Notes under the pieces: model-generated | Database searches by the model: none | What the model was told of the DNA's origin: nothing | The model's input: the letters and a program-made list of their open reading frames with translations, nothing else | Part shown: piece by piece, positions 1,443 through 60,112 of the stretch | Layout: each line of letters starts with the position of its first letter | Position numbering within the stretch: position 1 is the first letter of the stretch | Source of the DNA: a virus | Strand: one strand, 5' to 3' | Virus record (IMG/VR): IMGVR_UViG_3300022602_000037 | Length of the DNA stretch: 64,000 nucleotides | Made by a program: the position numbers and the translations under genes

Positions 1443-1476
1443 GATAAATATATGCGTACATTATCGGGGCGCATAT
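1443..1476 (+). promoter_or_regulatory. Late promoter GATAAATA (1443-1450) plus a hairpin over the translation initiation region
   Basis: ATATGCGT (1450-1457) pairs with GCGCATAT (1469-1476) just before ATG 1478. Confidence 0.55.
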
Positions 1477-1477
1477 T

Positions 1478-1762
1478 ATGTCAAGACCAAAGCCAAAAAT
1501 TCTATTAGAGAGCATTAATAAAAAAACCTATAAAGCCGAACAAATATTAGAAGCTGAAGCTATATGGGCAGTATTTTATAAAAACGAGCCTTTTAATCTA
1601 AAGAGCTTTAACAGCCTCACGAGTTATCCCGGACCAAAATATAAAAAAGTTTCTTTTTCAAATCCTGGCCATGCACATAATTTGGCAAAGAAATTAAATC
1701 AGACTTTCAATACAGAGGATTTCCAGGTTGTTATGCTTACACAAGGCACTATTATAAAATGA
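1478..1762 (+). CDS. Basic hypothetical phage protein
   Basis: 94 aa, MSRPKPKILLE... Confidence 0.85.
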   Translation: MSRPKPKILLESINKKTYKAEQILEAEAIWAVFYKNEPFNLKSFNSLTSYPGPKYKKVSFSNPGHAHNLAKKLNQTFNTEDFQVVMLTQGTIIK

Positions 1763-5777: not shown

Positions 5778-6098
5778 GTGACTAACTCGGGAAGATATCT
5801 TCCCAAGGAGGTCGTTAAACATTGGCCGGAAGTATTTGAAGACATACGATTAAATGTGGTACCTATGGAGTACCTACATACCGTATTGGTTAATTTCAAA
5901 GACGGAAAAACTTGGGAAATTAAAATAACACATAAAGCCAAACGGGAAGGATGGACTGCCTTTGAAAGAAGTTTGGCCGAGCTTTGCAGAAACTATGAAA
6001 CAAAAATAAACGATATCGACTTTAAGCTAGATACACAAAAAGTTAAAAAAGATATTGAAAAAAGCACTCAAAAATTCCTTAAGAAAAAGAAGCTATAA
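5778..6098 (+). CDS. Hypothetical phage protein
   Basis: 106 aa; GTG start; basic C-terminus. Confidence 0.75.
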   Translation: MTNSGRYLPKEVVKHWPEVFEDIRLNVVPMEYLHTVLVNFKDGKTWEIKITHKAKREGWTAFERSLAELCRNYETKINDIDFKLDTQKVKKDIEKSTQKFLKKKKL

Positions 6099-6101
6099 AT
6101 A
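6094..6101 (+). promoter_or_regulatory. Exact T4 late promoter TATAAATA
   Basis: Exact match, 5 nt before the ATG at 6107 and only 1 nt before the thyX ATG at 6103. Confidence 0.55.
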
Positions 6102-6102
6102 T

Positions 6103-6783
6103 ATGAATGTCCGACTACTTAGTTACAGCCAACCAACTACAGAATTTGCTAGCATGGGAATTGATGACGCCCAAGAGCTCATTGCCTACTGTGCCAGAGT
6201 CAGTAACCCAAGCAATCAACTCAACACAGAAACTAGTGAACGGCTTATCAGGTACCTCATCCGACACCAGCATTGGAGCCCACTTGAAATGGTCTCAGCT
6301 TGCATCGAAATTACAACAACTCGAGACATTGCCCGTCAGATCCTTAGACACAGAAGTTTTAGTTTCCAAGAGTTTAGCCAACGCTATGCTGACCCGACAA
6401 AGGATCTCAACTTTATACTTAGAGATGCCAGAAGGCAGGACCTACAGAATAGACAGAATAGTGTAGAACTAGATGTTCATAATAACGATGAAGATCGTTT
6501 CCTTGCTTATCAGTGGGAACGTATGCAAGAGCTAGTAATTAAACAATCACGCGAAGCGTACGAATGGGCTATTCTAAAAGGTATTGCTAAAGAGCAAGCC
6601 CGTGCTGTATTACCGGAAGGTTTAATCGAAAGTCGGTTGTATATGAATGGCACACTACGCAGTTGGATTCATTTTATCGAATTACGTAGTGCCAACGGCA
6701 CACAAAAAGAACATCAGGAAGTTGCTATTGCTTGTGCAAAAGTTATTTCTGAAATTTTTCCTTTAGCAAAAGATCTTACTTAA
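6103..6783 (+). CDS. thyX: Flavin-dependent thymidylate synthase
   Basis: ThyX motif RHRSFSFQEFSQRY, plus HWSPLE, AKEQARAVLP and GTLRSWIHFIELR; start moved to ATG 6103 (MNVRLLS). Confidence 0.95.
   Translation: MNVRLLSYSQPTTEFASMGIDDAQELIAYCARVSNPSNQLNTETSERLIRYLIRHQHWSPLEMVSACIEITTTRDIARQILRHRSFSFQEFSQRYADPTKDLNFILRDARRQDLQNRQNSVELDVHNNDEDRFLAYQWERMQELVIKQSREAYEWAILKGIAKEQARAVLPEGLIESRLYMNGTLRSWIHFIELRSANGTQKEHQEVAIACAKVISEIFPLAKDLT
6107..6466 (+). CDS. Candidate overprinted gene (119 aa) in the +1 frame of thyX
   Basis: Late promoter at leaderless spacing; thyX codon choice avoids +1-frame stops over exactly this interval. Confidence 0.5.
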   Translation: MSDYLVTANQLQNLLAWELMTPKSSLPTVPESVTQAINSTQKLVNGLSGTSSDTSIGAHLKWSQLASKLQQLETLPVRSLDTEVLVSKSLANAMLTRQRISTLYLEMPEGRTYRIDRIV

Positions 6784-19311: not shown

Positions 19312-22275
19312 TTATATTTCTAGTTTTAAGATTGTAAGTGTTACAGTTATATTAGCAGATGATCCACTATTATTATAAACTTTCAAATACATGTTTGAGC
19401 TAACTGTTCCATCAGCATTGAATCCAATTGCGGCTGGAGTAAAATAAGTTGTTGTTGAAACAGTTGAAATTGATTCTGCAATGACTCCACTTCCTGGAGT
19501 AGGATCTGTAGTAATAGATCTAGAACTGTCATTAGACTGTGCTGTTGAACTAGTATAAACAGTTACCCATGCTCCTGCTGAAACTTGAATACTATATAAT
19601 GCGTAACCTTTAGCGGCTGTAATTGTTCCCGTCACTGAGTTTCCAGAATTAATAATACCTGTAACATATTGTACAGTAGTTCGACTTTGTAATCCAGATG
19701 TTTGAACCGCACTAATCGTACCGCCACTGATTGTAATAGTTGTTCCGTCTGGTTTTACTGCACCAAGTTGACTTGTTGTTGCGGTAGCTACTGCAATATT
19801 TCCATTAGTAGCTATAATAGTTGAACCGTCAACAGTTACACCACCTAATTGGCTAGTTGTAGCTAGAGCAAGGCCAATTGTTCCTGTTGTGTTTGTAATA
19901 CCACTTGTAGATACTGACGGTATAATAACTCCGCCTAATGCTGATGTTGTGGCTGCTGGAAGTGTATAAGAAATTGTACTAGTGATTACACCACCATTAA
20001 TTGTAATAGTTGTACCATCTACTTTAACACCACCTAATGTACCACCAGATCCAACACCTGCGGTTGGTAAAGTATAACTAGTGATATCAGACAAATTGGC
20101 TAAAGGACTCCAAACAGAATCGTGTGCATAATACATACGAGCATCTGCATTACTAAAAGCAACTGCACCTTTATAAGAACTTGCCGATGGAAACGCTGTT
20201 TGATTTGTAAAATAAAATGGTATAATGCTACCTACAACAGGGGCAGTAATAACTCCAGTATTGTCTATAGTTACTGCACTATTTTGTAGTGTTTGTCCAC
20301 CAGTGCCGTTGTATATTGCAATAGCTCTGTTGGTAGATGCTACTGGGCCAATAACAGTTCCTCCTGATGAAGGCGCACTTATAACACCAGATCCGCTGAT
20401 TGTAACTGTCGTTCCATCAACTTTGACTCCGCCCAATTGTGTAGTGCTTGCTATTGCTAGTCCGATAGTACCACTGGAGTTTGTTATTCCGCTAGTAGCC
20501 ACTGTTGGAATAATAACTCCACCTAATGCTGAAGTTGTGGCTGCTGGCAAAGAATATCCGCTAGCACTACTAATTACACCGCTTCCACTAATTGTAATAG
20601 TTGTACCATCAACTTTAACACCGCCCAATGTTCCTCCGCTACCTACTCCAGCTGTTGGTAAGCTATACGGTGCTGGAGGTGTAAATGAAAACACTCCGGT
20701 AGAATTGTTATAAGATAAACTGCCATTGCCGCTAGCTGTTTGAGTAGTTATACTAAGACTACTCAATTGAATTGGTGTGAATCCTAGTCCAGTTGTAATT
20801 TGATTGCTGGATAAAGTATTGCCGCTGATACTAGTTACTGTACCAGCATTTCCAGTGACGCTACCGTTAATTGGATTTGTTACTGTCAAATTAGTTAAAG
20901 TTCCAACACTGGTTAAACTAGAATTAACAATGTTTGAATTCAAAGTTGTACCAGTCAGCAATCCTGCGGCTGCCACAGTCGATCCTGGAATTTGTTGCCA
21001 GGTAGTTCCGTTATAAATTACATAATCACCGGCACTAAATGTAATGCCTAAAGCTGTACCTCCAACGGTAACAGCATATTCCCAACCAGCAGTACCAGAA
21101 CCGTTGGTTAATGTTGGAGTATTGGTACTGGCATTCCAAGTACCTTTATAAACAACTGCTCCTGTTAAACTTGCAGGTATCTGACTAGCTGTCAATCTTC
21201 CGTCCGGTCCTAATGTTGCTATTCCACTAGCGGCACCAATTGTACTGATTGCCGGAACTGAAATAATTCCTCCTGATATTGAAACGGTTGAACCATCTCC
21301 TTTAACAACTCCTAATACGCTTGAAGTAGCAGTTGGCAATGACGCAATATAATCAACGCCCGGAACTGCAATACTCAATGCACCCGTCGATGTAGTACTC
21401 TTAAGTAAACCCGTAGCCAAACCGCTAGTGCCAGGTGCATAATCTGTACCGCTTACTGCGGCTGTTCGAGTAGTGCCCGAAGACTTAACAATACCTGTTA
21501 CACTTTGCGCACTTTGATAATCTGTTCCAGCAACAGCCGCAGACATACTAGTACCGTTGCCTTTTAATATGCCGTTTATGTTAGTAATTATTGTAATAGC
21601 AGGAGTTGTGGTGCTATTGGCAACAGTTCCTGCAAAACCATTTGCTGTAACAACACTTATCGATGATACTGTTCCAGATCCTGCAATAGCAGTAATAACT
21701 CCATTATTAATAACAATCGAAGTTCCGTCAACTTTGACACCACCTAGTGTTCCTAAAGTGCTAGTTCCAACAGTAGCCGTTGGTATAACACTACTAATAA
21801 CTCCATTATTAATAACTATTGAAGACCCATCAATCTTAACACCACCCAATGCGGTTGTTGTTGCTGTTGGTAAGCTATAACCGCTAGGTGCCGCACTGAT
21901 CACACCGCCATTTATTGTAATAGTTGTACCGTCAACTTTGACACCGCCTAATACTGAAGAACTTGCTACCGGCAAACTATATGCGGCTGGAGCTCCAACT
22001 AATTTATTATAACTTAATGCTGTAATCCAACTTGGATCTGAATAATTTCCTGTTGTCAGCACCGCATTTGTTGTTGTATTAGGCGCCCAAAATAATTGAA
22101 ATCCATCTGTATACAAGGCATTTCCAGCTTGTCCAACCTTACTTGGCAACACTGATGCCGCGACATTTGTGTATAATTCTGTAAAATTGGCATTTATCTT
22201 TTGCCCGGCTGTACGTAGACTGTCACCAGTGCCATCGCCTGGGGCTGATCCTACGTTAATAAGTTGTTGTGTCAT
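19312..22275 (-). CDS. Repeat-rich fibre protein with a T4 gp9/gp10-like N-terminal attachment motif
   Basis: N-terminal INVG..PGDGTGDSLR..GQKINANFTELY; about 11 copies of LP.A....LGGVKVDG.TI.I..G.IS. Confidence 0.75.
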   Translation of the reverse strand: MTQQLINVGSAPGDGTGDSLRTAGQKINANFTELYTNVAASVLPSKVGQAGNALYTDGFQLFWAPNTTTNAVLTTGNYSDPSWITALSYNKLVGAPAAYSLPVASSSVLGGVKVDGTTITINGGVISAAPSGYSLPTATTTALGGVKIDGSSIVINNGVISSVIPTATVGTSTLGTLGGVKVDGTSIVINNGVITAIAGSGTVSSISVVTANGFAGTVANSTTTPAITIITNINGILKGNGTSMSAAVAGTDYQSAQSVTGIVKSSGTTRTAAVSGTDYAPGTSGLATGLLKSTTSTGALSIAVPGVDYIASLPTATSSVLGVVKGDGSTVSISGGIISVPAISTIGAASGIATLGPDGRLTASQIPASLTGAVVYKGTWNASTNTPTLTNGSGTAGWEYAVTVGGTALGITFSAGDYVIYNGTTWQQIPGSTVAAAGLLTGTTLNSNIVNSSLTSVGTLTNLTVTNPINGSVTGNAGTVTSISGNTLSSNQITTGLGFTPIQLSSLSITTQTASGNGSLSYNNSTGVFSFTPPAPYSLPTAGVGSGGTLGGVKVDGTTITISGSGVISSASGYSLPAATTSALGGVIIPTVATSGITNSSGTIGLAIASTTQLGGVKVDGTTVTISGSGVISAPSSGGTVIGPVASTNRAIAIYNGTGGQTLQNSAVTIDNTGVITAPVVGSIIPFYFTNQTAFPSASSYKGAVAFSNADARMYYAHDSVWSPLANLSDITSYTLPTAGVGSGGTLGGVKVDGTTITINGGVITSTISYTLPAATTSALGGVIIPSVSTSGITNTTGTIGLALATTSQLGGVTVDGSTIIATNGNIAVATATTSQLGAVKPDGTTITISGGTISAVQTSGLQSRTTVQYVTGIINSGNSVTGTITAAKGYALYSIQVSAGAWVTVYTSSTAQSNDSSRSITTDPTPGSGVIAESISTVSTTTYFTPAAIGFNADGTVSSNMYLKVYNNSGSSANITVTLTILKLEI

Positions 22276-25200
22276 TGTGTTGTTCCTTGATCGAATGTTG
22301 TGCGAGTACCGTCAAAACTTAATAGTGTGTTGTCAAAAGTTCCCACCGATACATTACTTATTTGTTTATACTCACTATACCATATGCCAGGTTCTGCTCT
22401 TAAGAAATCGCTTATTTTTCCAGTGTCATAAAGCACACTTGTTACATTATCCCAAGCCAATCCTGAATTTTGTACTACTGTAATTTGTGTTCCAAAACTT
22501 AATAAATTAGTCAATATTACAGTTGCTCCATTAATTATAAAAGTTAAAGAAGCAGTTCCATTTGAGGCTGTTCCCAATGTGTGATTAGGACCTGTAGTTC
22601 CTAGAACTCCGGCCACAGTAACTTCATAATAATTATTTTCATAATTTACATAAACACCTATTGCAACTGCTAAACCAGATGCCCATGTTGGTCCATAATA
22701 TTTCACTGCTGGTATAGTAAAATCTGGACTAAATGCAACATCTCCTTCTGGGCTAGTTGGGGCGTTGTTTATATTAAAGACACTATATCCAACTTTCTTC
22801 AAGCGTCTATTTCCAATAAAGAATTTCCAAGCACTGCTTGATGCAATATTAGTTGCAATAGAAGTAGTAGTTCCATCACTGTTAATTGTAACTTGGGTAA
22901 CAGAACTAAAGAATGTGCTTCCACTAATATGGCTAATTAAACATCTATAGGTGTAAGATCCCACATTAACTATAGCACCTACAGGATAAACTGCGCCAGT
23001 TTCCCATACTGATCCGTCGTTGTATCCTCCTACAAAAATTTCCATATCGTTAATAGTAGCTGGTACAAAATCTAAACTAACTAGATTTGTACCGTCACTA
23101 ACAATTTGTGTGACTTTTTGTGTATCACTATATGGAATATTTTCAAAAGGTCCAATATCCTGGACTAGTGTACCTGCTAAGGATACTGAATAAATTCCTG
23201 TACCAAGAGTCCCTCGACGCAATTGACTTAACTGATTACCTACTAGCGAGAAGTACTCAATACGCTCACCTCTAATTTCAATAACTCCTGGTTTATTTTT
23301 ACTTGGATTTGGTAAGTCAAAATTAGAAGCATTTTCAACTACAATCACAGTGTCATTCCAGTGTAAATCTTGTGCCAATGTAGTTTGTTTAGATTTACTT
23401 AGACGTTTATAGGTCACACGATTTAACATATCTTTGAACTGCATATATGCGATTCCAGATGTATATACATTGCTACCAAAAGTAATTATGGTTAACTTGT
23501 CAGTAATAGATGTATTTTGTGCTAATGTTATACTTTGATAATCTGGATTTAATTTATAATCAATCACAGGACTTAATAGAGTTCCATTTTTAATAACCCA
23601 AACGTAGTATTCACTTAATACTTGTCGGTCAAGCTGGACGATTCCTCCAAGAATATTATACATGTAAAAATAAAAAGAACTATTTGGTGTAAGAGATGCT
23701 AATGTAGAAGTAGATAAGGTAGTTCTTTGTGAATCTAAAAATTCATGTTGATAACTACTTATAACTTGTACCAAATGTGTGTTGTCATATGCTGTGTTAA
23801 ATGTAATCTGATTATTCAGTGCATTATATGTGTAGCCTTCTCCGGTAGTTAGACTCACAACCAAAGTTTGACCTTTATATGTGTTATAGGTAGTTTTATT
23901 AATTTTAATTGTAACACCTGACAGATCAACAATATAATCTGTTCCTAGTGTTAATGTATTACTTCCCGCATAGACATACAAAGTTCTAATGTCAATCGAA
24001 TATGGAACAAATTTGGTAGGATCAACTGTATAATTAAGTCTGTTGCTACCTATTGTAAAATATGCATTTACTGGAGCAGGTAAAATAGACTGATCGACAC
24101 GCACTATCATGTCTGATTCGTCTGGTAAGAATGTTCCAACAGGATTTTGCAAATTATAGGTAAATTGTCCGTTAGTTGCTATTGTTTCAACATTAGTTAT
24201 AGCATAAGTCGGCACCGTACCAGCAACTATAATAAAATTAATTAATGCACCGGCAGCAGGAGCTTTTCCAAAATTAAATCCAATTGCTCCAGAATACAAA
24301 TATGTCTTATCAGTCTTAAATATCTGAGGGCTAGCAACTTTACCATCAACATATACTAAAGTTGTGATAGGAGTTGTCCAAGTTGCACTTGATACAAATT
24401 CAGATGTTGTTCCATCGCCAACAAAGTAATCAATATCTATAATGTTTGCGCCATTGAATCCAATACTAAAAATACTAATTTCTGAATTAGAAGTAGGAGC
24501 AGTATGGAAAACAATATTATTATTTCTATAATCAACATCATAATCAGTTGTCACAGTTTTTATCGCACCACCTACTTTTACTATTACAGCACCTGGACTG
24601 TTTGGTTGTTGACTTATTTTGAAACCAGTAGTAGCTCCATCCCCAATATAATTGTCAGTTCTTATAACTCCCGATCCGCTAGTTGGTTTTTCAAATATTT
24701 TAATAGCTAACGCATCAACTAACTGTCCTGGAACAACTTCTTCGGGAGCCACATTCGTAGTAGTTGTAATAAGACCGTCGCCATCGACGATAATGTCATC
24801 TGCTGATAAACCAGTAGCTGTGGCATAAACACCATTTAATGTGGTAGTATCACCGCCACTTAAACTAGTATCATAATCCTGATCTCTTGGCGCTATCGAA
24901 CCATCGCTGGTAGTTTGTCTAATAACAAATTCGTCACCTTTAGATACAGTAAACACATTAGCCGATGCATTTGATCCAGCATCTACTTTGTCAAGTATTC
25001 CATATACTGTACTTGCAGATCCTCCGTCATCTACCTCAATATCTATAGTTGTATTGGCTTGACCGCCGTCAACTAGTGTATAAGGTTGCGGAATGCTAAA
25101 TGTTTTAGTTGTTAAACCACCAACATCGCTAACACCATCAGATAAGAAAGTGTTTACAATAGCAGTTGCATTTATTGAAGGTATTAATGTAGATTCGTTT

Positions 25201-28200
25201 GATAAGATTGTACTTAATACAGTTTGCAGACCTGCATCTTGAGCCGGTGCTGTAGGATTAGTTACTGGTGCATTTGGATAAAATGCACTGCTTATAATTG
25301 TTGTAATTGTTGATATATTATTACTAATAGCAGTTCCTGCTATTTGACCGTTAGCCAGGCCGCTATTTGTATATTGGAAAAAGTGTGTTTGTAATCTTGT
25401 AAATTGAGTATTGGTAATAATATGCTGAGCCATAGAATTCAAATATCCAAAAACACCTGACCAATAGGCAGGGGGTTGAATGAATGGAATACTATTATTG
25501 TAAATCCAATACTGATTTGCTGAATAGATAGATTCTCTATTGCCGCCGTAGGTTAAATCGTAACATAGACTCAACACGATATATTGAATTTTTGTTTGGA
25601 AATCTGTTTGATCATATACTACACTTGGATAATTGTTAGTAATATATTGTATTAATTCTGCTTGAATAAACGGAATATTATCATTCAACAAAGTAGCCGC
25701 ACTATAAAGTCCGTAATTAGGAGAAATAAAAGTATAATTCCCGTATTCTGCTTGTAGTCCAATACTTTGATTAATTTGTGCCGCAACTAGGCCATTATGT
25801 AGTACTACTGCTACGACTGTTGCAAATCCTGTTAGCCCAAGACCACTCACTGACCACCCTGCTTGCACTGGCGTAGCACTAATAGATGCTACTGGAATGT
25901 ATACATAGGTTCCTATCGGTGATCCGTTTATATTTGGTACATTATAAACTATAGATGTAGGAGTACCATACGGCAATGTAAATATTGGTTGAGGAACAAT
26001 TCCACCGCCAACAATAGTTGTTACTATTGCTGTGTTTGTATCAATTGCCAAGACTGCTTCTGCATTAGTACCCACTCCTTGTAGATTAGATACTGTTTCA
26101 AGTAAATTATTAATTGAATAATTTGTTTCACTAGATTTATATCCGTAAGAAGTAATGTGGTTTGATATTGCAAGTCCTACCAAAATACTTTGATAGTTTG
26201 AATTATACGCGGCATCATAAGCTGCCGATTCTACTAGTTGAGCAAAGAAAGGTTTTATATTATAATTAGGATCATCTAATCTAACAGGATTTAATTTTCC
26301 AAGAATACTAATTATAGAACCCAGCGCTATTCCGCTATTTGTTAAATTTGTTAACGTAATTTTTCCATTGTTACTAATAACTACATCAGTTGGGTGAATT
26401 AGTGTACGAACAAAATTTAAGTAAGTGCTATCTGGTATTTCAAAATAAAGTATAGAACTTAGTTGTACTTGATTTGCAGATAAGCCCAACGTAGAATTTG
26501 GACCTACTGCTGTAACTGTAGTATTCAATGCAAACAATGATAACGATGTATCTGTAGTTGTTATAACATCACCTACTCTTATTCCAGTCACGCTATTAAC
26601 ATACAAAATGTTGCTAGCAACCACGTTAGTTGTAAAAATAATGATTCCGCTAGGAAGACTATCGGGCGGAACACTTAATTGTACCTGAGTTGATGATAGT
26701 ATTGCTGTTACGGTTTGCCCCGATACAAATCCTTCTCCAGTTGCAGTCATACCCACCGTTATATTTGCAGTGCTTACTAGAGTAATAGTGTTTACATAAG
26801 ATCCTGCAACAGACGCAACAGATGCAAATGTAGCACGAACACCGCTAGAGTAAGTTGTATGAGTCAATGTAACATATGGTGCAATATCTTGAGTATTATA
26901 AACATATTCTTTAGTAACACCATCTGATACATATGAATCTACATTAACCTGTGTTCTATAAATGTTTAGTTGTATACCATTATCTGGAGTGTACGGTAAT
27001 GTAAATGTATTAGTGTTAGCATTTACAACAACACTATAATCTTTATATGTGCTGTCATAACTATCCCACTTATCTGAATAAAATGGTACACTATCCCAAC
27101 CCTGAGAAATTTCAAATCCTAATCCGTTAACAATAACACCGCCATAATCTATACCAGTCATTAACTGTGCAAGATCTTTTCCTGGTTCACCTGCACTTGG
27201 TGTATAATAATACTGTATTCTATCTGTAGCACTTAACAAAGATTCTGCAATATTATATGTAACAACTATTGATACTCCTTTTTTAGGAGCAGTTGTAAAT
27301 GTTATTGTTCCAGAATATGTGGTATACCCCTTAACAGTACTTGAAACAATAGCAAGTGTATAAGTATCTCTTAATGCAAGAATACCATTAAGTGTAACAG
27401 AACTTTTACCTATAGTGTTATCTGGTCCCCATTGTAAAACAAATTGTAATCTACTACCAGTTCCAGTAAATGTTTCAGTTTTTTCTAATTGTGTAATAAC
27501 GTATGTTTGATCTACTCTGTCAAATTTAATTCCAACATAATTAGATCTAACAAGGCTTTTTCCAATAATTGCTACCGCAGTTGCTGGTGTTCCAGTAGGC
27601 AGTATTCCACCTTTAATTGTAATCGTTGGTGCCGATAAGTAACCAGTTCCCGGAGTTAATAGCACTATTCTATTGACTTTTTCATTACTAATAAATGCTC
27701 TAGCTGTTGCTCCGGATCCGCTGTTGCTTGTAAAAATAACCTGAGGTTCAGTTACATACCCGCTGCCGCCGCTAGTTAATTTTAATTCTGTAATTGTAAA
27801 TCCTGCATTATCAAGCCAGAACTTCCAAGGATATGTTTCTATAGCAGGATCTTGGGCGATGATTTTATCATTTTGAGAATAAACTTGTATCAAAGTTCTC
27901 TTATTATTTTCGTAAATAGAAGGTAAATCAAAATCTGTTATAGGCAATTGGGCAGGATCAATGCTGTCATAATTGCTAATGTATTCCCTGACAGTAGTTT
28001 TATAAGGTTTAACTTCGTTGACATAATCTTCAAAATTAGCAAGATTATCTGGTTTGTAAGTCACAGGCTGATCTAGACCGCCGACATTGTGTTGGGCTCT
28101 TACAAAACTAGTCTTAAATATCCAATCAACATAAAGTTGTTCGCTATGAATATAATGTACACTACCAAAGAATAAATCTAAATAAGAACCGTTTAGTTCT

Positions 28201-31200
28201 CCTTTGAAAATATCATTTTTTAGACTAGACAGTATAATTCTCAATTCAGTTGATGCATATAGGTCAAAAGATTGAGAGTCATATATGTTATTATCAAAAC
28301 CTAATTGAGTATTCGATAAATTGTAAAGAGAAGCATCCAGCTGAATGGTGCCATTTTGTAAGCCAACTACATGATAACTCTGTGTCCAATCTATGCTTGT
28401 AGAATCCGCATACTTATATAATAGTTCCCAACCGCCTGTGTTAGTGGTTCTAACTTTAACTGTTTGTCCTATAATAGGAGAAATTGAATTTAAGTCCGCC
28501 AGTGTGGCAACTGAAAAATCAGCGGCTGTAAATTGACTGTAACCAGTTGCATACCAGTCTGCATAACTCCAATAATTTCTAACATCATATGCTTGAGTTA
28601 AGACTAATGACCAATATCCAACTGTAGTCTTTCCTACTGATGTTACTGGAGGTATCCATGCATATATACTCCAATTTCCATTAGCGTTAACATCGCTTCT
28701 AATTAATGCACTGTAATTTCTAATGGTTAATGTAGTTGTACTATCATAACCTTGTCCTGATGATATTACTTTAGCTCCGGTAATCTGACCTTTTGTATTA
28801 ATAATTGCATTTACTACAGCCCCAGTACCGGTACCATTAACTGTAATATAAGGAGCAACAAGATATCCTTTTCCTGATAAAGGATTACCAGTACTATCAG
28901 TATTAATAGTTATTCCAGTAATCCTGCCATCCGAAATTGTTGGGTTAATACTTGGTGTTGTATAATTACCTACACTAGCATAAATTAATTCTGCATAATT
29001 ATCAAAAGCAATATCATACAACCCCGTAGTAATTGCAGGTGCTGGATCATAACTTTCTAAATTTTTAAGATCTGAATTTTCTACTATCTGATTTGCTAAC
29101 AATATCTGATTAGCTTGTTCTACAAATTCTTTTAATGCTTCAAAACGATTAACAAACATACCCTGGCGAGGTCGATTTTCAATACCATAACGTAACTTAG
29201 GAGGCAATGCCGGATCGGGCACTGGTCGACCTACTGAATCATTTCCACATAAACTGTCAATCCATTTTTGTTCAATTACATCAGGAATATATGTTGTAGG
29301 GTCTTCGCTAACTAATTTCCAATGACTATGTACATTCTGATTTGTTTTAGAACCTAACCAGTACTCAACACTTAATACAACTTCGTCATGCTTTAAGTAT
29401 TGTTTTGCATTAACTAGACTAAAACTACTTGGGCCAGTTAATGCAAGATATGTATAACCCTGCCCTCTTGGATTAGCAATTAAAGTAGAAACATCGCTAG
29501 CTGCCAAGTTTCTTCCGGCAACATTAGGAATGAATTTTTTGTTTTTAACCCAGAAATAATAGGTATTCTTAAATGTTTGAGTTACAGTATTATAAGTTTG
29601 TTTTACACTATAACAACTATTGCCATATAAACTAGTTCCACTTATTCCGGCCGTAATACCAGCTGGTGTGTCTGCTAGAGAATCCCATACTGCTGGCAAT
29701 TGGTTATAACTTACCCATTCGTAAATATCAATACTTGCACCGGTTGCTAGCGAATTCCAATTTGTATTTTTATAAACAGGGTTATCTTCATATGCATTTA
29801 AGAATTTTGCGGTTCTTAAATCCCACCATAATAAGCCTACTTGATCATCTTTCCATGCAGTGCCAGTATTGACATTAACTGTAGTATCTCCTACACTATA
29901 AGTAGCTGGATCATAAAATGCTTTGAATTTAATTTCTTCTTCTGCTGGCCCAGCAATTTTGCCCTGTGCAGGATCAATAATATCTAAGTATGTTACTAAT
30001 GTTCCTAAAGTTCTATTATACAAGAACGCTTTTTTAATTTTCTTAACGTCTGGTTTATCAATTTCGCTGTGTATGATAGTCCAAGTCTTTGTGCCTGGCA
30101 TCTTACTATAATCATATACTCGACCAGAAGTTAATCCATGATCTATACCAAATGGTGCACCAATTAATACGTGATTGCCCCCTACTGCAAATCCAGTACC
30201 ATATCCGTCAGCTACTCCACCTTCATTAGTAATTATTGCGGCAATACCTGTACCTGAACCGTCACCTGTTGCAGTAAATGTAACACCAATAGCATTAACA
30301 CTAGCACCAACTTTTGTAAAATCTGTAGTGCCTAAACTTAATATTGAATATGTATTACCAACAACAAATTCTCCTGCTGGGGTAACTGGATTAGACCTGG
30401 TTAAACTTTCACTAAACACCCAACTAGTATCATAACGATCATAGATATCAATGCGACCACTATTAATTTGTCGTACAGTAAATGGTGTAGAATTTTTATC
30501 AAATGTTGTAGAATTTTTATCAAATGTTGTAGTTATAAACGTATCGCCATACTGACTATAAATTACTAATGTTTCAAAGTTATTCATGAAAGAAATTTTA
30601 CGGCCAAAATGTCCGTTAGTTTCTGGTTGATGAGGAACTAATGTCTGTTGTATAAAATATAATCCAGAATCAGTATGATAATTATATACTGCTACAGAAC
30701 CTTGTTGTTTAATTTGTGTTGAACTTGTAGTATCATCTGAAATAGCAATATAATTGCCATCATCTGATATTGCCAATTGTATATCATAATCAACACCTTG
30801 TAATATTTGTACTAGTCCAAAACCAGTTAAACTATTTCCAGAAATAGTACCTGCCTGTGTTTGCGGGCCAGTAGCGTGGCTAGCATAACTAACACTATTC
30901 AATGTAACAGCAGTTACAACAAATGCGCCGTTAAATGACGATGGTACAACACCAGAGACTGTAATTGTATCGCCTAATGCATAGGGCAATAGTGTTTGTT
31001 TAGCAAACGTCAATGTTGCCGTTGTGCCGGTTCCAGTAGCACCTGTAGTCGTCAATACAACTGTTGGTGTAGCTTTGAATATTGCCACTAAAGCAGTTGT
31101 AACACTACTTGCGGCACTAATTGCTAATGTAGAATTATCATTACTTATGGCTAGACTATAACCAAAATTCATTCCGGTTATATTACCAGTATACACCTCG

Positions 31201-34200
31201 GCTTGATCATAGCCCCAACCAACAACTGCAAATTCAATTACTCCGTTTGGAGTGCTATCTGGGCTGCCACTTAAAATTAATGTTGTAAAATTAACTACAC
31301 TAGTAACTGTCTGTCCGCTTGTGAATCCAGTACCTAGCACATACATGCCTGGAAGTATGCCGATTGTACTAGTTACTCGCAATGTTGCTTCTGCACTTCC
31401 TACAGGATTATATGCAGACTGAGCTTGTACTACTGAAGAATATTTTAATTTATATACTCTACCAGATGAATTATTATATCCCGGAGCTGATATATAAATT
31501 ACATCATTACCAAATGCAAAATTTGATCCAAAATTTTCATTAGCAACAGGATAAGGACTTACAATAGTATCTACTAAAGCGTAGATATTATTTGAATCTT
31601 TCTTATATAGACTTATTACACCTTGTCGTGCATATCCAGTTTGAGCATACTGGAATGACCATTGGCCGCTGCCGCTATCAGGTGTAGAAGGAGCCTGCTG
31701 AGTAGCAGACATGATTCCACTTGCAGTCGTTAACGGCACTGCCAAGTTACTTCCTTGTATAGCTGTTATTGTAAATTGTGTACTACTAATAATTGTTTGT
31801 ACATAATAAATGACTCCAGCTACTGCTCCTCCAAATGTATTTCCAGAAAAAATAATTTCATAACCAACGCCTAATACGCTAGTATCTGCTGTGGTCAAAT
31901 AATATGTAGAGGCTGCGGTATTAGTTACTGTAATTGTTACTTGCCCATAAATTTTAATAATAGATTGATAAACATTACTCTTATAGATAACCAAGCATCC
32001 CGAAGGATAAATTACAGTTGGATCCCAGGTTCCATAACTATCGACTGGAATATAATATATTGTTTCCCAGTAGCCGTATACATCATATAATGGCTCATTA
32101 TTTGCTGGTACAACTTTAAGTGCTCGATAAAAGTTAGTAAATCCAGTATCTAAATCTACTTCACTTACAATGAGTCCTGGGCCATATACTAAAACTTGAT
32201 TCCAATTACCAATATAATTTGTAATTGCATAACCTGCCAATGGACTGCCAGTTATCATGTACGATGCATCGGGTGCGATTGCAACTGCTGTAGCAACAAC
32301 ATTTCCTTGATTTGGATTAGTTGTTATTATATAAGTAGCAGTTGTTATAGATGCATTTGCTGGCTGGCTAATTGTGACACTAACTCCTTGAATTACTGAA
32401 ATTATAATTGAATTTGGAGAAATGCCTTGACCTTCTATAACTCCGTTTAACATTCCAGAGGCTGCCGCAGACATTGTAACTACAGTACTATTGATTATAG
32501 TGCTTGCAATAACATTATAAACTGTATTGGTAGAAATAAAAGGAGGTTCAATGATTTGTCGTTGTACCCATGGCAAGGCCGGACTAGATTTATCATAAGT
32601 GGTGATTTGCCCATAACCTGTGCCTATGGCAGCCATGTTACCTTCTCTGTTGATTGCAATAACAGCACCAAACTCTAACTCATTTTGTGGAGCAGAATTA
32701 TTCAAATAAGAAATTTCATATACTGGGTTGTATTGCCAAGTAGCCCATTTGCCGTTACCCTGATCATCGGTCCAAATTAGTTCTCCTGGATTTAGACGAA
32801 CTGTGAGAATAGAATCTAATGAGTTAATACTAGATGTTCGTTGACTTACCAGTGCATACACTACCAATTGGTTTGATTGTGTAAATGGTTGAGGAAACCC
32901 AGAAATAGTAGCAGAAATTGTAAACGAATTTAAGTTTACACTGGTAATTTGATAAAATCCTTGCAACAACGCTACTTGAGAAAGCCCGACCCAATCACCT
33001 ACTTGGAATGAGGTTAAATTTTCAGTAGTTAATGTTAGTGTAAAGTTATTATTGTTATAAGAAACGTTATTAATTATAATTTGTAAGTCGGTGAATCTGT
33101 AGACATTCCAACTTGGACCATCAAATGCCACCCATACATAGGCACCTTCATTAAATGTAGTGATATCATAAGAAGATATTTCTGACAAGTATCCTAAACT
33201 TAAGAATACATCTGTGGCATTAACATATCCTGCTTCTCTTAAGAAAGAATTATACACTGGTAGTAGAGGCCAGGGTTGACTATTATAACCTAAAGGTTTT
33301 AGATAAACATCATTATATGTTTGTTCAATAATAAATGTTTCACTAAGACTTGTGTCTTTTAATTGTCTTAGTTCAAATCCCTGAGGATTAGATCTAAAAT
33401 TTGCTTCGTTGAGTATAAACTCTATATTTTCAAACGCTTTAGCGGCACCGTATTGTCCCAATCGTAATGCCCATTCTTCATAAAATACCAAACTCTCTAA
33501 GTTATCAGAACTTAGTACATTAAACAATTTATTAAGACTATTTTGTGTACCTTTTTCACGAATCATTCCTTGATAAAACTTAAATTCTGTAACATCGTCT
33601 TGTAAGATGTTATCTAGGTATTGACGTTTTTGATAACCAATTAAATGCTGTGCAACTTTTTGTTGATTATTATCAAAATTATCACTGTCTAAGCTATAAA
33701 AATCTTCAAACTGACTTGCCTTGTAAGACCAATTAGGTAATAGTTTTGCTGTAGGTTTTGTTGCCAGTTGAGTCCACTGTGTAGCATCAAAGGTTTCTGT
33801 ACCAATCAATGCCGACAATGCGCTATAATAAAATCCTTGATAATTAACAATATCGCCTAATGCATAATCTGTCCATGCTTTCCAATTTTGTATAATTGCT
33901 TGGTCAAAAATAAATCCTGGAATGTCTAATCCGCCATACCAATCGATACTAACATGTCCAGAAACTTTAAGTCTTTCTTGTCTATAACCACTTTCTGGGT
34001 TATAAATTACATCATTAAAAATTGTTGTATTACTTAAAGTAATAACTTGTTCATGTTGGATTAGATAAAAACTTGCACCATATATTCCATCAGTTGTTCG
34101 AGGACTATAAGATACTATATTTCCACTTCTGTAGCTATCTAAAAATTTTGAAGCCAGTGGAGTTCCATCAACCTTGAAAATTTCATAGTGATAGAATGGA

Positions 34201-37200
34201 TTTGTTATATCATCGACTACAGCTAAATTAGTTGTAAAAGTTAATTTACTTGCAGATGGACTTAGACTTATAACACTATTACCTACATTGCTTATTCCAG
34301 GCAACATTTGATATTTTGCCTTATCAAAAGAATCAGTAGCTGAAAGATTATATAAAGCACTGTAATAATCTCCGTTATATCTTACAATAGTACCATAAGT
34401 TACCGGAGCATTTGGCATCCAATCTTTCCATTGACTAGAATCAGGAGTCCAGTTTTGAGTAGTCCAGAATAAAAATTCTTTAGCACTAGTTTCCCAATTT
34501 GTAACTAGGCCTAAGTTAACGTTAAAGCTGTCAAAAGTAAATCCTTCGTCTTGAAGATATCTGCCGTACCCTAGTAAGAAATCTACAACTTCTTGTTTAG
34601 TTTGAAATTCAGTACCGTAAGGAACAACAATAGGTTTAGTTCTGTCCCAACCAGTTCTAATAACAGCACTAGCTCCACCTACTACCGGTAAATGACCTAA
34701 GGGAGTAAAAATATTTGAATCAAACGCAGTACCTGCAACAGTGGTAGATAATGTTCTGTAGTAAGAATTTACATATTTTACAATAGTACCAGTTACGTAT
34801 GTTTCTCCTGGCGTCCAAGTTACATAAGGTGCGCTAATACCACCAATGACTGTTGTAGGACCAGATTTAACATAAGGATAATAGGTAAAATATGGTTGAG
34901 TTTGACTGTAGCCTTTTACTTCATACCCGTCGGGCATCTTTGTAATAATAACACCACTATAAACTATTTTCCTAATTGGGCTTGAACTATTTAGAAATAC
35001 ATTAAAATTTTCTGCAGGAACAAATACGTTACCAGTACTTGCAGGAGTTTTAGAATCTAATAATAAATTCATCTGCTCTTTACTAGTAAATGCGCCAATT
35101 CTATAAGATATCTGTGCTGTCATTGTAGCAAGATCAGTTATATATTGCTTGTAAGATTGTACATTATTACTAAAAATAAAATTTAAGATTTGATCTACAA
35201 TATAGTTTACAATACCTGCGGTTTGTACTCTAGTAGTACTAGAATAAATGCTTGGTAATAAAATATCTGCTGGAGATATTCTTAAATTAGTTTTTGTATA
35301 AACTAATTGTCCTGCTAAATTTCTTGCTATTCTAGATCTGTCTAACAAAATGTTTATAGTTTTAGCAGGTGTTAATAATATACTAGCAATAACAACTGCA
35401 AATGGGTAATGACTGCTACGACGCCATGCTGTTTCAACTGGACTTTGATCTCCGAATACAAATCCGTTTCCTGTATTTTGTGTTATAGTGCCGTTAGCAA
35501 GGCCAGACGCTATAGGATTTATTAATAATCCATTGCTATCCACTGGGATATGCTTCATTAAAAAGGGTTTAGCATACTTAGACAATTTAATTGTAGGCAT
35601 TCCTGGCTCTCTGACCATGCCATCATTAATATCTTGCCACATTGGTAGATTGTCACCGGTATAAGGTGCTGGTCCGTATAACTCTACCCACCAACTTGGT
35701 TGTTGACTAAATCCTAACATTTCCCAAGGACATAAATTTGGACGATCGGTGTCTAATAAATATTGGAATATGCCTCTCCAATATCCTGGAAGTTGTCTGC
35801 CGTCGGGTGCATAGTTATCCGAATAATTATAACTAAACGGATTGTTTATATCATAACTAAGAGGTTTTGTAAAATCTCTTCCTGATAGTTTAGTCCACTT
35901 GTAAAAATTAGGAGCTAATACTTGATTAAATTCTGCAAGACTGTAATCATTAGATCTGTTATAACTAGGAATAATGTCAGCTACATCAAAAATTGTAGGA
36001 TCGTACTGAACTTTAATATTATTAAAAATACGTTTTTCTAATTCTAATAACAGCTGATCTCGGTAATCTCCATAGGCAAGTATTTTACTACCATCGTGAC
36101 CTTGAATCATAGTTTGCGGAGTAGCATAGGTATTGTCTACATAAATTTGTGGAACATAGGCTGGCCACATTCCATATTTTGTAGGTGTAGCTGGAACAAA
36201 ACTACCATCAGTGCTGTCATATTCTACTGTTGTGATAGTGTCTCCATTATTCATTACTACGCTATTGGTAATAGTAAAATATCCTTGATTGTCAAATGTA
36301 TAATCTCTACCATGTACTAATTGACTGTTATTCAAGTAAATACCAACAGCTTTATTGGATAAAGTAGTTAATGTGAATACTGAACTTAATGGATATTGTT
36401 TTATTCTATAATCAACTACTGAAAGATTTGTTTTAACAGATGCTCCGTACGGAATCATATCACTAAAATAATAAGGAGCAGTATTAGGACGATCCTTGTT
36501 TATTTTTTGCATTATTAAATCTACAAGTGTAACTGGATCTCCGTCAACGCCCAAACTAGTAGCTGTCTTAACAAAATTTCTTTTGAAATTATTATAGTCA
36601 TCTCGACTTTGTTCAATTGAACGTATAATATTATTTGTTTCTGAAGTAATATGATATATTGTAGTGCTTAACGGACCACTGTGCTGTACAAATTTTGTTC
36701 CGTATTGTGTAACATTGCCTAAATCTCTTAAATTTCCATCCCCTGGAAATGATCCAACAAATGTTGTTCCAAGATTATCAACAATTGAATTTACATGATC
36801 TGCAACTTCACCTAATGTAAAATCTCCCATGATGTTATTCAAAGGATTATTTTGCAGATTAATTGGAATTTCGTAGTAGCCTTTACTATTAATTATTTGT
36901 GAGGCAAATGCACGGATTGTTAAAACATCACTTTTAGATATCGGATTAACCAATGTAATAAATTTGTAGTTAGGTCCTGAATTTAATTGCCACAATGTTG
37001 GGCTTAATCTAATTCCGTTTACATAAATTTTAACCACAAGATCTGATAAGTTTGTGATATCGTCAAAAATATCTAAATTAAATTTTGTTGTTAGCCCAGA
37101 ATTTTTGTAAATTCTAACGGCAGCTTGCGTATTAGGTGCAGAACATGTTTGCCAGCCATTTTTATAAGTTAACCCACCAGCATAAGTTTGTTTTACTAGA

Positions 37201-48425: not shown

Positions 48426-49253
48426 ATGACAACTAAAATAAATTACCTAAACAACAAGGATATGTTGTTAGAAATACATAGATCAAAAAGTTCATATTGT
48501 AGCTTTACCAAACCAGAATATCACCAATATGACATAATTTTACCTAGCATAGACAAAATTAATATACGTACTATAGCAGAAGCCAAACGCAATAGAGCCA
48601 AACGTATAGGAGATTTGGATTATCAAACTCGAAAAAAAGCCGGCGAAAAAGTCAAACAAGCAGACTGTGAAGTAGACTATAAAAAGATTGCTAAAACAGA
48701 TCTAGTCTTTAGGATTATGACATTTGATCATATCCCACTTAACAGTACTCGTAAAAAGAATCCCAAGAGTCTTGCTGACCATAGAGATAAGGTCAACTTT
48801 CCGCCATTCCAACATTGGAAATTTAATGACGCAGACGAACTCGAATGTGTTGGAAAAAGTCATTGGAAAGGTGATTTAGTCAAGGGTAAGTTTGATAAAG
48901 ATGCTGGCCAAATTACTAACACTTTAGCACGTATGATGTTAAAATTGTGTGAAAGGTATGCTACTCGCGGCAATGTTCGCGGTTACACATACAATGACGA
49001 AATGAAAGGACAGGCCATTTTGCAGTTAACACAAATTGGGTTACAATTTGACGAAAGTAAATCAGACAATCCGTTTGCTTATTTTACTGCGGCTGTTACT
49101 AATAGTTTTGTTCGTGTTATTAATATTGAGAAACGTAATCAAAATATTCGTGACGACATTTTAGAAATGAATGGAATGAATCCAAGTTATAGCCGTACTG
49201 GTGCTGGAGAACATGCGGCCGCAATGAAACGAAACGAGGAAGCCGGTGAGTAA
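48426..49253 (+). CDS. Late-transcription sigma factor (T4 gp55-like)
   Basis: NYLNNKD N-terminus; N.RGYTY.DEM...A......FD..KS.NPFAYFT.....F.R.I..EK; next to gp47/gp46 as in T4. Confidence 0.85.
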   Translation: MTTKINYLNNKDMLLEIHRSKSSYCSFTKPEYHQYDIILPSIDKINIRTIAEAKRNRAKRIGDLDYQTRKKAGEKVKQADCEVDYKKIAKTDLVFRIMTFDHIPLNSTRKKNPKSLADHRDKVNFPPFQHWKFNDADELECVGKSHWKGDLVKGKFDKDAGQITNTLARMMLKLCERYATRGNVRGYTYNDEMKGQAILQLTQIGLQFDESKSDNPFAYFTAAVTNSFVRVINIEKRNQNIRDDILEMNGMNPSYSRTGAGEHAAAMKRNEEAGE

Positions 49254-50259
49254 TTTATTCAAAAAAGTAGCGTGTTTTACTGATATACATTTTGGATTGA
49301 AATCTAACAGCTCGGTACACAACCAAGACTGTGAAGACTTTGTAGATTGGTATATTGCAAAAGCAAAGGAGGAAGGATGTGATACAGGTATCTTTATGGG
49401 AGACTGGCATCATAATCGTAATAGTCTTAATATCACTACAATGGACTATAGTCTTAGGGCGTTGGAAAAATTGGGTCAAGCGTTTGATAATTTTTATTTC
49501 TTCCCTGGTAATCACGACTTGTATTATAAAGACAAGCGAGATATTCACTCAGTGGAGTTTGGAAAATATATCCCTGGCATTACTGTTGTTCACGAGCCTA
49601 CCACTATTGGTAACGTCACTTTGTGTCCCTGGCTTGTTGGGGAAGAATGGAAAAGCCTAAAAGGCTCTAAGAGCAAATATATCTTTGGACACTTTGAATT
49701 GCCTTTATTTTATATGAATGCCATGGTACAAATGCCAGATCATGGCGAACTTAAAGCAGATGATCTGCGTGGGCCCGATTATGTATTTTCAGGTCATTTC
49801 CACAAACGTCAACAACAAGGCAATGTAGTTTATATCGGCAATGCATTTCCACACAATTATGCAGACACATGGGACGACGAACGCGGCATGATGATTTTAG
49901 AGTGGGGTAAAGAACCTGTATATTACACATGGGGTCAACAGCCTACATTCCGTACACTAAAATTAAGCGAATTAATCGACGGCGCAGACACTATTATTAA
50001 ACCTAAACAGCATTTGCGAGTTACATTAGATATCGATATCAGCTATGAAGAAGCTAGTTTTATTAAAGAAAAATTCATGACAGATTATGATATTCGAGAA
50101 TTAACTTTGATTGCTGAAAAGAAAGATATAGAAATTAATACTAATATTGATATACAGTCGTTTGAATCAGTAGATCAAATTGTTAGTAGTCAGATTATTA
50201 ACATTGAAAGTGACACTTACGACAAGAATACCTTGTTAAGCATTTATAATAGCCTATGA
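49246..50259 (+). CDS. Recombination nuclease gp47 (Mre11/SbcD-like)
   Basis: DIH, GDWHH, GNHD, GHFE, SGHFH metallophosphoesterase motifs. Confidence 0.92.
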   Translation: MSNLFKKVACFTDIHFGLKSNSSVHNQDCEDFVDWYIAKAKEEGCDTGIFMGDWHHNRNSLNITTMDYSLRALEKLGQAFDNFYFFPGNHDLYYKDKRDIHSVEFGKYIPGITVVHEPTTIGNVTLCPWLVGEEWKSLKGSKSKYIFGHFELPLFYMNAMVQMPDHGELKADDLRGPDYVFSGHFHKRQQQGNVVYIGNAFPHNYADTWDDERGMMILEWGKEPVYYTWGQQPTFRTLKLSELIDGADTIIKPKQHLRVTLDIDISYEEASFIKEKFMTDYDIRELTLIAEKKDIEINTNIDIQSFESVDQIVSSQIINIESDTYDKNTLLSIYNSL

Positions 50260-53332: not shown

Positions 53333-53340
53333 GATAAATA
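53333..53340 (+). promoter_or_regulatory. Late promoter GATAAATA, probably giving a leaderless mRNA
   Basis: 5 nt before ATG 53346; no SD. Confidence 0.7.
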
Positions 53341-53345
53341 TCATT

Positions 53346-54296
53346 ATGAAAATCCACGAATTAGTTGAAGATAATACAAGATCTGATGAAAGCCTTGCTA
53401 CTTGGCTAGTTAGTACAGGTGCTAAGTTAGGCGGAAAGCAAGCAGTAAAAGCTGGACTTAAAGCGGCACCCACGGCTACTAAACTAGGTTCACAAGCAGT
53501 ACAAACAGCGGCCAAGAGCAAGGGTGTTGTGGGAGTTGCTGTAGAGTTTGGCCAGCTGGTCAGTAAGATAGTCAAAGTTTTTATCACACTGGGATTTGGT
53601 TATAGCGTAGCACAGCCTATTTACAGTTATTATAAAAATGTCACTAAAATTGAAGACATGTATAAAAATGGTGAAGTTACCCAGGAAGAATATCAGTATC
53701 AGCGTCAACAACTAATGGGATTGATGATTACACGAGTAGCTGTAGTTCTAGAAGCTGCCGCAATCTTAGGTAGTGCCGCTGGTGTTCTAAAAGTATTCAA
53801 AATTCTAATTGGCTGGGTTCCTGGTTTAGGTAAAGTTTTAAGTTCATTAATTGGTATACTGGAAGGTGGTAATGCTGTGGCCGCTGCCGGTGCTATTACT
53901 TTGATCAACAGCAAATGGGGCAGTGAGTGGATTACTAAAATTGCATTTTATCATCTTAGTGAAATATTTCCCAGTTTGAAAGGCACTTCATGGGATATGG
54001 ATCTAGCAGATGTGCTAGGTGCAGGTGGTACATTTATTGTAGATGGTGTTAAGAAAATTTCAGACAGTGTATTAGGCACACACTTACAAGATCCAGCAGA
54101 TGCTCCTATCAAGAATCAAAATAAACCTAACACACCTACTGATCCTAATGCGGCTGCCGACCAAGCGGCTGGTGATCTTGCAGACAAACAACATAAAGAT
54201 CAACAGACTAAATCAGATGACAAGTGGGATCAAATAGGTCCTGGTAGAGAACAGAATCGTCGTACTGGTGTAATACGCATGAACGACAAGTATTAA
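53346..54296 (+). CDS. Hydrophobic, probably virion-internal or ejected protein
   Basis: 316 aa; MKIHELVE N-terminus; several long G/A-rich hydrophobic segments. Confidence 0.65.
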   Translation: MKIHELVEDNTRSDESLATWLVSTGAKLGGKQAVKAGLKAAPTATKLGSQAVQTAAKSKGVVGVAVEFGQLVSKIVKVFITLGFGYSVAQPIYSYYKNVTKIEDMYKNGEVTQEEYQYQRQQLMGLMITRVAVVLEAAAILGSAAGVLKVFKILIGWVPGLGKVLSSLIGILEGGNAVAAAGAITLINSKWGSEWITKIAFYHLSEIFPSLKGTSWDMDLADVLGAGGTFIVDGVKKISDSVLGTHLQDPADAPIKNQNKPNTPTDPNAAADQAAGDLADKQHKDQQTKSDDKWDQIGPGREQNRRTGVIRMNDKY

Positions 54297-59862: not shown

Positions 59863-59865
59863 ATA
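59858..59865 (+). promoter_or_regulatory. Late promoter CATAAATA (leaderless spacing)
   Basis: Overlaps the portal stop codon; 4 nt before ATG 59870. Confidence 0.6.
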
Positions 59866-59869
59866 TCAT

Positions 59870-60112
59870 ATGATCCTAAGAGAATTATTTTACATTGATC
59901 CTGATACTCGTCATGTTGCAAACGATTTGCGATACGAGCCTAAGCGTGACAATAGTCAAATGCATAGAAGCGATACACGTAAAACAAGATTAACTCTTAA
60001 ACAACTTAACGAACTGCGTAAGAGTAGTGAAGCGCATATACTAGAACAAGAAAATGAATTAGAATTTATTCATTCTATGTATGCTACTCCTGCTCCTGCG
60101 CCAGCACAATAA
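59870..60112 (+). CDS. Small head-module protein
   Basis: Start moved to MILRELF; DTRKTRLTL.QLN.LR. Confidence 0.8.
   Translation: MILRELFYIDPDTRHVANDLRYEPKRDNSQMHRSDTRKTRLTLKQLNELRKSSEAHILEQENELEFIHSMYATPAPAPAQ

Follow-up and report, generated by a model that had tools for sequence, protein, structure and literature searches.

A probable overlapping gene maintained in the +1 frame of thyX in aquatic phages

A second reading frame inside thyX

The viral DNA of IMG/VR record IMGVR_UViG_3300022602_000037, analysed here as a single stretch of 64,000 nucleotides (nt) and referred to below as the window, carries thyX, encoding a flavin-dependent thymidylate synthase, and the +1 frame of this gene very probably constitutes a genuine overlapping gene that annotation has missed. 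The thyX product possessed the ThyX motif RHRxxSxxxxSxR as RHRSFSFQEFSQR, and ThyX homologues number in the hundreds. The overlap starts with ATGAATG, in which the thyX start codon is followed, 4 nt inside the gene, by the ATG of the +1 open reading frame (ORF). Because a TGA directly upstream closes the +1 frame, the ORF begins exactly at this second ATG, and it stays open for 119 codons (Table 1). A first-pass annotation had described this locus as a hidden gene overprinted on thyX with its own late promoter, and the positions it gave for the TATAAATA box, for the two start codons and for the 119-codon run all match the sequence.

The same annotation had pointed to a codon choice in thyX that spares the +1 frame from stops, and its bookkeeping was exact: among the 23 leucine, isoleucine and valine codons of the overlap, 20 ended in C or T, none was TTA or TTG, and the three that ended in A all stood before a C. 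Past the +1 stop, 11 of the 26 such codons in thyX ended in A. Permutation of synonymous codons within the gene gave a run of at least 119 codons from codon 1 with P=0.00046, and a +1 run of at least 119 codons anywhere with P=0.003; when codons were drawn from window-wide usage the probability fell to P<2e-5 (fewer than 1 in 50,000). Codon shuffling, proposed as a check in the first-pass annotation, therefore indicates that a frame of such length is not common by chance. The run was the longest same-strand alternative-frame run across the 36 long ORFs of the window (about 20,000 codons and about 72 gene-frames), yet thyX ranks among the shortest of these ORFs. After a scan of about 72 gene-frames the evidence from the window alone is borderline, suggestive and not decisive, and it is the comparison with homologues that makes the case for the +1 ORF decisive. 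Other same-strand +1 runs in the window comprised 104 stop-free codons within 49246-50259 and 92 within 58117-59862.

Table 1. Features of the thyX locus, with putative late-promoter boxes and candidate leaderless genes of the window and of related loci
Feature	Position	Strand	Basis or remark
thyX, flavin-dependent thymidylate synthase, 226 amino acids (aa)	6103..6783	+	Pfam Thy1 (PF02511), E=1e-44; older host gene
Overprinted ORF in the +1 frame, 119 codons and TAG (product P0002); probable gene	6107..6466	+	ORF listing, permutation, homologue comparison
Start codon of the +1 ORF, built from thyX codons 2-3 (AAT GTC)	6107..6109	+	NATG kept in open loci
TGA closing the +1 frame directly upstream	6104..6106	+	Read from the sequence
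TAG stop of the +1 ORF (thyX GTA and the following G, codons 121-122)	6464..6466	+	Sequence
TATAAATA, putative late-promoter box of T4/cyanophage type	6094..6101	+	Ends 5 nt before ATG 6107
Upstream 106-aa gene, C-terminus QKFLKKKKL	5778..6098	+	ORF listing
NATAAATA boxes besides the thyX copy	675, 1444, 53334, 55356, 59859	+	Motif scan
NATAAATA boxes	13485, 17704, 42583, 48364, 55373	-	Motif scan
Candidate leaderless late gene, 316 codons	ATG 53346, box region 53333-53348		GATAAATA 5 nt before ATG, no Shine-Dalgarno sequence
Candidate leaderless late gene, 80 codons	ATG 59870, box region 59858-59872		CATAAATA 4 nt before ATG, no Shine-Dalgarno sequence
Candidate leaderless late gene, 176 codons	L017, near 5938	-	
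Candidate leaderless late gene, 242 codons	L032, near 4834		
Candidate leaderless late gene, 244 codons	L070, near 3655		

Open and broken frames among thyX relatives

Relatives of thyX were taken irrespective of the state of their +1 frame from three collections, the best 80 matches being listed for each, with many more in existence: IMG/VR viral contigs (80 loci, ThyX identity 70-94%), genome contigs (80 loci, 64-79%) and metagenome contigs (80 loci, of which 78 were new, 66-85%). The viral set comprised 81 genes with the window included, and 239 thyX genes were compared in total. The +1 frame was open for at least 100 codons in 79 of the 239. In the viral set, 48 of the 81 genes were open for 100-173 codons from codon 1 (47 for at least 119 codons), with shuffle probabilities of P<=0.012 and mostly P<=0.004, and in the remaining 33 the frame broke at codon 1-38. 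The metagenome sample, which is independent of the viral one, contained 27 open genes among 78. Numbers of +1 stops within codons 1-118 were bimodal, with zero in 76 of the 239 genes and a broad distribution peaking at 8-12 in the rest. Alignment of related thyX genes had been suggested in the first-pass annotation, with stops scattered through the frame in close relatives as the outcome that would tell against the gene; with 79 of 239 genes open and a bimodal distribution of stops, this outcome did not materialise. Four matches from the genome collection (L081, L083, L084 and L130) were also open; these lie on contigs of metagenome-assembled genomes and may be phage-derived. Of the four, L081, L083 and L130 are Polynucleobacter- and Haliscomenobacter-associated, which suggests candidate hosts.

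In cellular thyX (Candidatus Actinomarina, Dehalococcoidia, Thermodesulfobacteriota and others) the +1 frame was broken in every gene. These genes mostly start ATGAAAGT, without a +1 ATG, and one of them, with a guanine-plus-cytosine (GC) content of 0.60, was open for only 46 codons. Among cultured phages, the closest to the window were Methylophilales phage Melnitz and Limnohabitans phage DC31, with about 61% ThyX identity, and both have broken frames. A joint protein tree placed all open genes in one clade, sister to the cellular clade. Open genes occurred in at least four upstream and at least nine downstream gene contexts, indicating that the open state travels with thyX itself. The ORF ended at codon 120-122 in several subclades and at codon 154, 158 or 174 in others, which leaves the first 119 or so codons as the common unit.

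Presence of the start codon followed that of the open frame. NATG was found in 48 of 48 open viral loci and in all 27 open metagenome loci, and the +1 ATG was absent from 22 of the 33 closed viral loci. Codon 2 of thyX was AAT, CAT or GAT in the open viral loci and never AAC; where it encoded asparagine, it was AAT in 44 of 44 open loci compared to 10 of 15 closed ones (AAC in 5 of 15). The +1 ATG was intact even though the position of the thyX start read ATT, ATA or ACA in L021, L073 and L227 (ATT in L021), and in the latter two thyX apparently begins 10-11 codons upstream. As the Lys2 codon of cellular thyX (AAA or AAG) yields no ATG, the +1 start is likely to have been created by a change at ThyX residue 2. 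Two metagenome loci (L188 and L208) had lost the +5 ATG and had a +1 stop at codon 4-5, after which the frame was open to about codon 122; methionine codons occur near codon 15 in both, and translation of the overlapping gene may begin further downstream in this variant.

Selection on the frame

Within the overlap, synonymous differences between open sequences amounted to 48% of codons, against a saturation level of about 60% (they are thus about 80% saturated), and the sequences formed 31 lineages, each more than 30% apart. We simulated neutral drift of synonymous codons on the nucleotide tree; an open root was imposed, and the rates were fitted so as to match the divergence seen. On average 0.08 of 81 tips remained open, with a maximum of three in 300 runs, compared to 47 observed. 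Avoidance of A-ending codons was restricted to positions where they would form a stop in the +1 frame. In the overlap of open genes, leucine, isoleucine and valine codons ended in A at a frequency of 0.001 before a purine (n=714) and of 0.315 before a pyrimidine, four-fold codons before a purine ended in A at 0.47, and NTG codons stood at 0.000 before A versus 0.244 before other bases. Stop avoidance is context-specific, not compositional. The proposal made from the window that a second open frame, together with a start codon for it, is maintained by selection within thyX is strongly supported by the 79 open genes among 239, the bimodal stop counts, the simulation and the permutation.

Properties of the predicted +1 product

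Third positions of thyX codons are second positions of +1 codons, and C occupied them at a frequency of 0.305 in the overlap of open genes, compared to a frequency of 0.13 in the part of those genes beyond the overlap and of 0.11 in closed genes. These C-rich positions render the +1 product rich in serine, threonine, proline and alanine and more hydrophilic: the four residues together made up 33% of the product in open genes versus 14% in closed ones, and the mean hydropathy index (GRAVY) was -0.53 in open and +0.05 in closed genes. The invariant +1 residues G57 and W62 are imposed by thyX. What is retained is the frame with its start, its length and a hydrophilic composition; the amino-acid sequence itself drifts. 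The product is probably disordered.

A profile search of 1.84 billion representative proteins returned 48 matches; those inspected were +1-frame translations of thyX or frameshift chimeras, and the others aligned from residue 1 and were 119-158 aa long. No membrane segment was found in the +1 product (highest 19-aa hydropathy, median 0.59), and the candidate features of a membrane segment, a lipobox or a T4-like head-targeting tag were dismissed as none was conserved. Selection for basic charge (isoelectric point about 9.6) was likewise rejected, since closed frames would be at least equally rich in lysine and arginine.

Putative late-promoter boxes and candidate leaderless genes

The motif ATAAATA occurred 12 times in the window, where 36 copies were expected, and 11 of the 12 were situated in short spacers, 1-52 nt ahead of the start of a gene in the same orientation. 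The only NATAAATA copy of the window that was not upstream of a gene start, at 35756, lies inside a giant ORF. Exact TATAAATA was present in two copies compared to 11 expected, and ATAAATAT in eight compared to 10.75. Across the window and related viral loci combined (536 kb) there were about 45 motif copies and about 280 expected, so that NATAAATA was depleted 3-6-fold in the window and in the window together with related loci. Genes behind the boxes included those starting at 42564 (baseplate wedge), 48341 (virion structure) and 13460 (fibre-like), and T4-like baseplate genes were present in the window. T4-like cyanophages have NATAAATA as their late-promoter motif (PMC2984593), and the T4 late box sits about one helical turn upstream of the transcription start site (PMC2988020). 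By analogy, the depletion and placement of the motif fit a late promoter of the T4-like cyanophage type, and the boxes would provide a usable late-promoter map for this phage (Table 1).

The distance from box to next ATG spiked at 4-5 nt. Five ATGs at this distance opened long ORFs with no Shine-Dalgarno sequence in between, among them the two at 53346 and 59870 that the first-pass annotation had cited as leaderless comparators, with spacings (5 and 4 nt) that we confirmed. At thyX, a box 4-5 nt before the +1 ATG was found in 9 of 78 open loci and in none of 160 closed ones. The late promoter assigned earlier to the ORF is plausible, in that the box is depleted elsewhere, lies upstream of genes and recurs with a 4-5 nt geometry; as a general property of the ORF it does not hold, because only those nine open loci have it. 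In this phage, the predicted box at the thyX locus is rather likely to be active. A transcript from it would lack the thyX AUG, and the genes downstream of thyX in the window are convergent, which would leave the +1 ORF as its only sensible product.

A box and leader may also occur at another gene. The conserved element ATAAATA-t-ATGCGTRYATTAT precedes a gene whose product begins MSRPKPK in the window (1444-1500) and in L011 (near 862), L072 and L075 (both near 782), and it looks like a promoter with a conserved leader, or with a tiny upstream ORF of 4-18 codons.

Interpretation and alternative explanations

We infer the translation, transcription start, timing and function of the +1 ORF from sequence comparison, and the mechanism that we prefer, and consider probable if by no means certain, is that the frame is translated into a de novo, disordered accessory protein. 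Ribosomes would start at ATG 6107 and translate the +1 frame over the first 119 codons of the thyX region. The ORF may have arisen once, in a thyX clade carried by uncultured phages of aquatic habitats, many of which are T4-like with very large genomes, when a change from lysine to asparagine at thyX codon 2 created the +1 ATG; selection against stops would have held the frame open since then, with loss of the ORF in about 10 lineages. The product would be a hydrophilic polypeptide of 119-173 aa, rich in serine, threonine and proline and probably disordered. Selection would maintain its presence, its length and its composition but leave its sequence almost free to change. Most carriers would translate it from the thyX mRNA, either through a shared ribosome-binding region or by re-initiation past an upstream stop 4-8 nt away. 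In the window and eight other loci, a late transcript from the NATAAATA box may start at or next to A6107 and, being leaderless, would give the +1 product alone.

Several results weigh against a protein with a function of its own, or against a promoter dedicated to it. The joint protein tree contained about 10 nested losses of the +1 ORF inside the open clade, and the ORF is thus dispensable. Suppression of synonymous substitutions in thyX, a further check proposed in the first-pass annotation, was almost nil: synonymous differences in open genes were 0.476 in the overlap versus 0.501 downstream (ratio 0.95), and in closed genes 0.568 versus 0.548 (ratio 1.04). An entropy test for synonymous constraint was weak (p=0.025, and p=0.1 without leucine, isoleucine and valine codons). 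The +1 product of L002 was only 45% identical to that of the window where ThyX was 92% identical, so the earlier wording of a kept "protein" is not supported at the level of sequence, which drifts nearly neutrally. AlphaFold2, run on the +1 product with a 48-sequence alignment, gave no confident fold (predicted local distance difference test 55, predicted template modelling score 0.22). No relative of the product was found in Pfam (a single CBM32 match at E=0.04), in PHROG (one match at 0.0016) or in the ESM Atlas (best score 0.84, with recognition under the usual level), and the profile search of 1.84 billion proteins yielded no stand-alone homologue. As for the promoter, the box was missing from 69 of 78 open loci, including the closest relatives of the window (L001, L003, L004 and L008), and at thyX it is partly produced by the leucine and stop codons of the upstream gene. 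With a box in only nine open loci and none in the closest relatives, the ORF does not depend on it, and its maintenance across the clade must have another cause than the box.

The main rival to a de novo protein holds that the act of translation matters and the protein does not. The +1 AUG would compete with the thyX AUG, and the passage of ribosomes across about 120 codons would tune ThyX levels or protect the mRNA; the product would be a harmless by-product, held hydrophilic against toxicity. We judge this unlikely, although it would account for +1 amino acids that evolve almost neutrally while frame and start are kept, for a shift in composition that cuts hydrophobicity and makes no motif, for the lack of a fold or of relatives in our searches, and for two start codons 4 nt apart behind one common upstream region. 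However, no known mechanism requires a long out-of-frame run, and an early stop is evidently tolerated in the 10 or so lineages that lost the ORF and in all cellular thyX. Fixation of a small number of synonymous sites in open genes alone (GCC at codon 31, CAC at codon 55 and GCT-GAC at codons 96-97) also speaks against it, as does the late box in nine loci, which would yield a transcript without ThyX and so points to a product wanted for itself.

Two further explanations are both very improbable. One regards the open frame as untranslated and as a by-product of the base composition or codon usage bias of the 5' half of the gene, perhaps through mosaic origin or higher GC content. GC in the overlap of the window (0.44-0.49) does exceed that of its surroundings, and open genes have 0.41-0.52 in the overlap where many closed ones have 0.31-0.41. 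Yet A-ending codons are used normally outside stop-forming contexts, nearly all open genes reach P<=0.004 under permutation within the gene, which holds composition fixed, closed genes with a GC content of 0.45-0.52 exist, the start codon co-varies with openness, and neither bimodal stop counts nor the neutral simulation fit such an origin. We regard composition as ruled out by these results, together with the short run in high-GC cellular thyX. The other explanation is that the frame serves a programmed frameshift product joining the +1 N-terminus to the ThyX C-terminus, or the reverse, and public chimeras that fuse a +1 N-terminal part to the C-terminal half of ThyX do exist (P0022, P0027, P0033 and P0035). 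Their junctions differ in each case, as assembly indels or pseudogenes would give, and this led us to reject programmed frameshifting; the chimeras are probably assembly indels or thyX pseudogenes. Inspection of the chimeras and of the alignment by eye, with no motif scan, showed neither a common junction nor a slippery site, the frame is open from its own ATG right after a stop, and the ThyX N-terminus is conserved in frame 0.

Returning to a translated de novo protein, its expression could be linked to the infection timetable. An early polycistronic message would give ThyX, and a late, leaderless message, from a NATAAATA promoter positioned to start transcription just beyond the thyX AUG, would give the disordered +1 protein. 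Its gene would belong to a wider, so far undescribed class of late genes with leaderless messages in giant aquatic phages of the T4-like type. We consider this extension possible but on balance doubtful. If true, the genes at 53346 and 59870 in the window and the ORFs in L017, L032 and L070 would be other members of the class.

Comparison with known systems

Overlapping genes are textbook features of tiny viruses, where they are usually put down to lack of space, and to our knowledge the core enzymes of large double-stranded DNA phages have provided very few proven cases. Among the papers searched on thyX or on overlapping and overprinted phage genes, none linked thyX to such a gene. Overprinting is familiar from the Microviridae, in which phiX174 gene E lies inside D, gene B inside A, and K is a further example. 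The thyX ORF resembles these in being a younger same-strand ORF wholly inside an older gene, in a shifted frame and with its own start, whose predicted product bears no relation to the host protein and has an unusual composition. Unlike in the Microviridae, the carrier is a very large double-stranded DNA phage whose genome size is under no evident constraint, the host gene encodes a metabolic enzyme that originated in cells, and the +1 product has no membrane segment and is almost unconstrained in sequence. Rz1 of phage lambda, a +1-frame gene embedded in Rz with a product rich in proline and serine, is similar in its embedding, in the frame, in its occurrence in a tailed phage and in the bias of its product. 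The thyX +1 product differs from Rz1 in that it has no signal peptide, conserved lipobox cysteine or hydrophobic segment, and it is not encoded in a lysis cassette.

The box at thyX shares its 8-mer with the late promoters of T4 (TATAAATA) and cyanomyophages (NATAAATA) (PMC2984593, PMC2988020), and in the window this 8-mer is strongly avoided elsewhere and sits just upstream of baseplate-wedge, virion-structural and fibre-like genes. It differs from the T4 late promoter in its closeness to the ATG, with a gap of only 4-5 nt both at thyX and at four or five further genes, which predicts a leaderless transcript without a Shine-Dalgarno sequence. We know of no description of such box-to-ATG spacing as a feature of T4 late genes. 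A leaderless phage mRNA is that of lambda cI transcribed from P_RM. The predicted +1 transcript would likewise start at the A of the AUG; unlike that of cI, the message would lie inside another gene in a different frame.

The birth of the thyX ORF appears traceable, with a single clade, sister to cellular thyX that lacks the ORF, an identifiable start-creating step (Lys2 to Asn) and many independent losses. Strong selection on the frame combined with near-nil selection on the sequence would make it a clean system for studying the origin of new proteins and the selection that acts on newborn disordered ones. Standard annotation overlooks this probable gene, which is found in many aquatic phage genomes, and the locus points to leaderless late transcripts in T4-like phages.

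Neighbouring genes and other observations

The 106-aa gene upstream of thyX had no PHROG match. Its TAA stop (6096-6098) sits inside the TATAAATA box, the final leucine codon and the stop together supplying TATAA, and its C-terminus also precedes thyX in many relatives, open and closed alike. Elsewhere in the window, a 203-aa antisense ORF (60376-60987, minus strand) lies within the gene at 60218-61132, and a single ORF of 5,610 codons (22272-39104, minus strand) in the structural block adjoins the baseplate-wedge genes.

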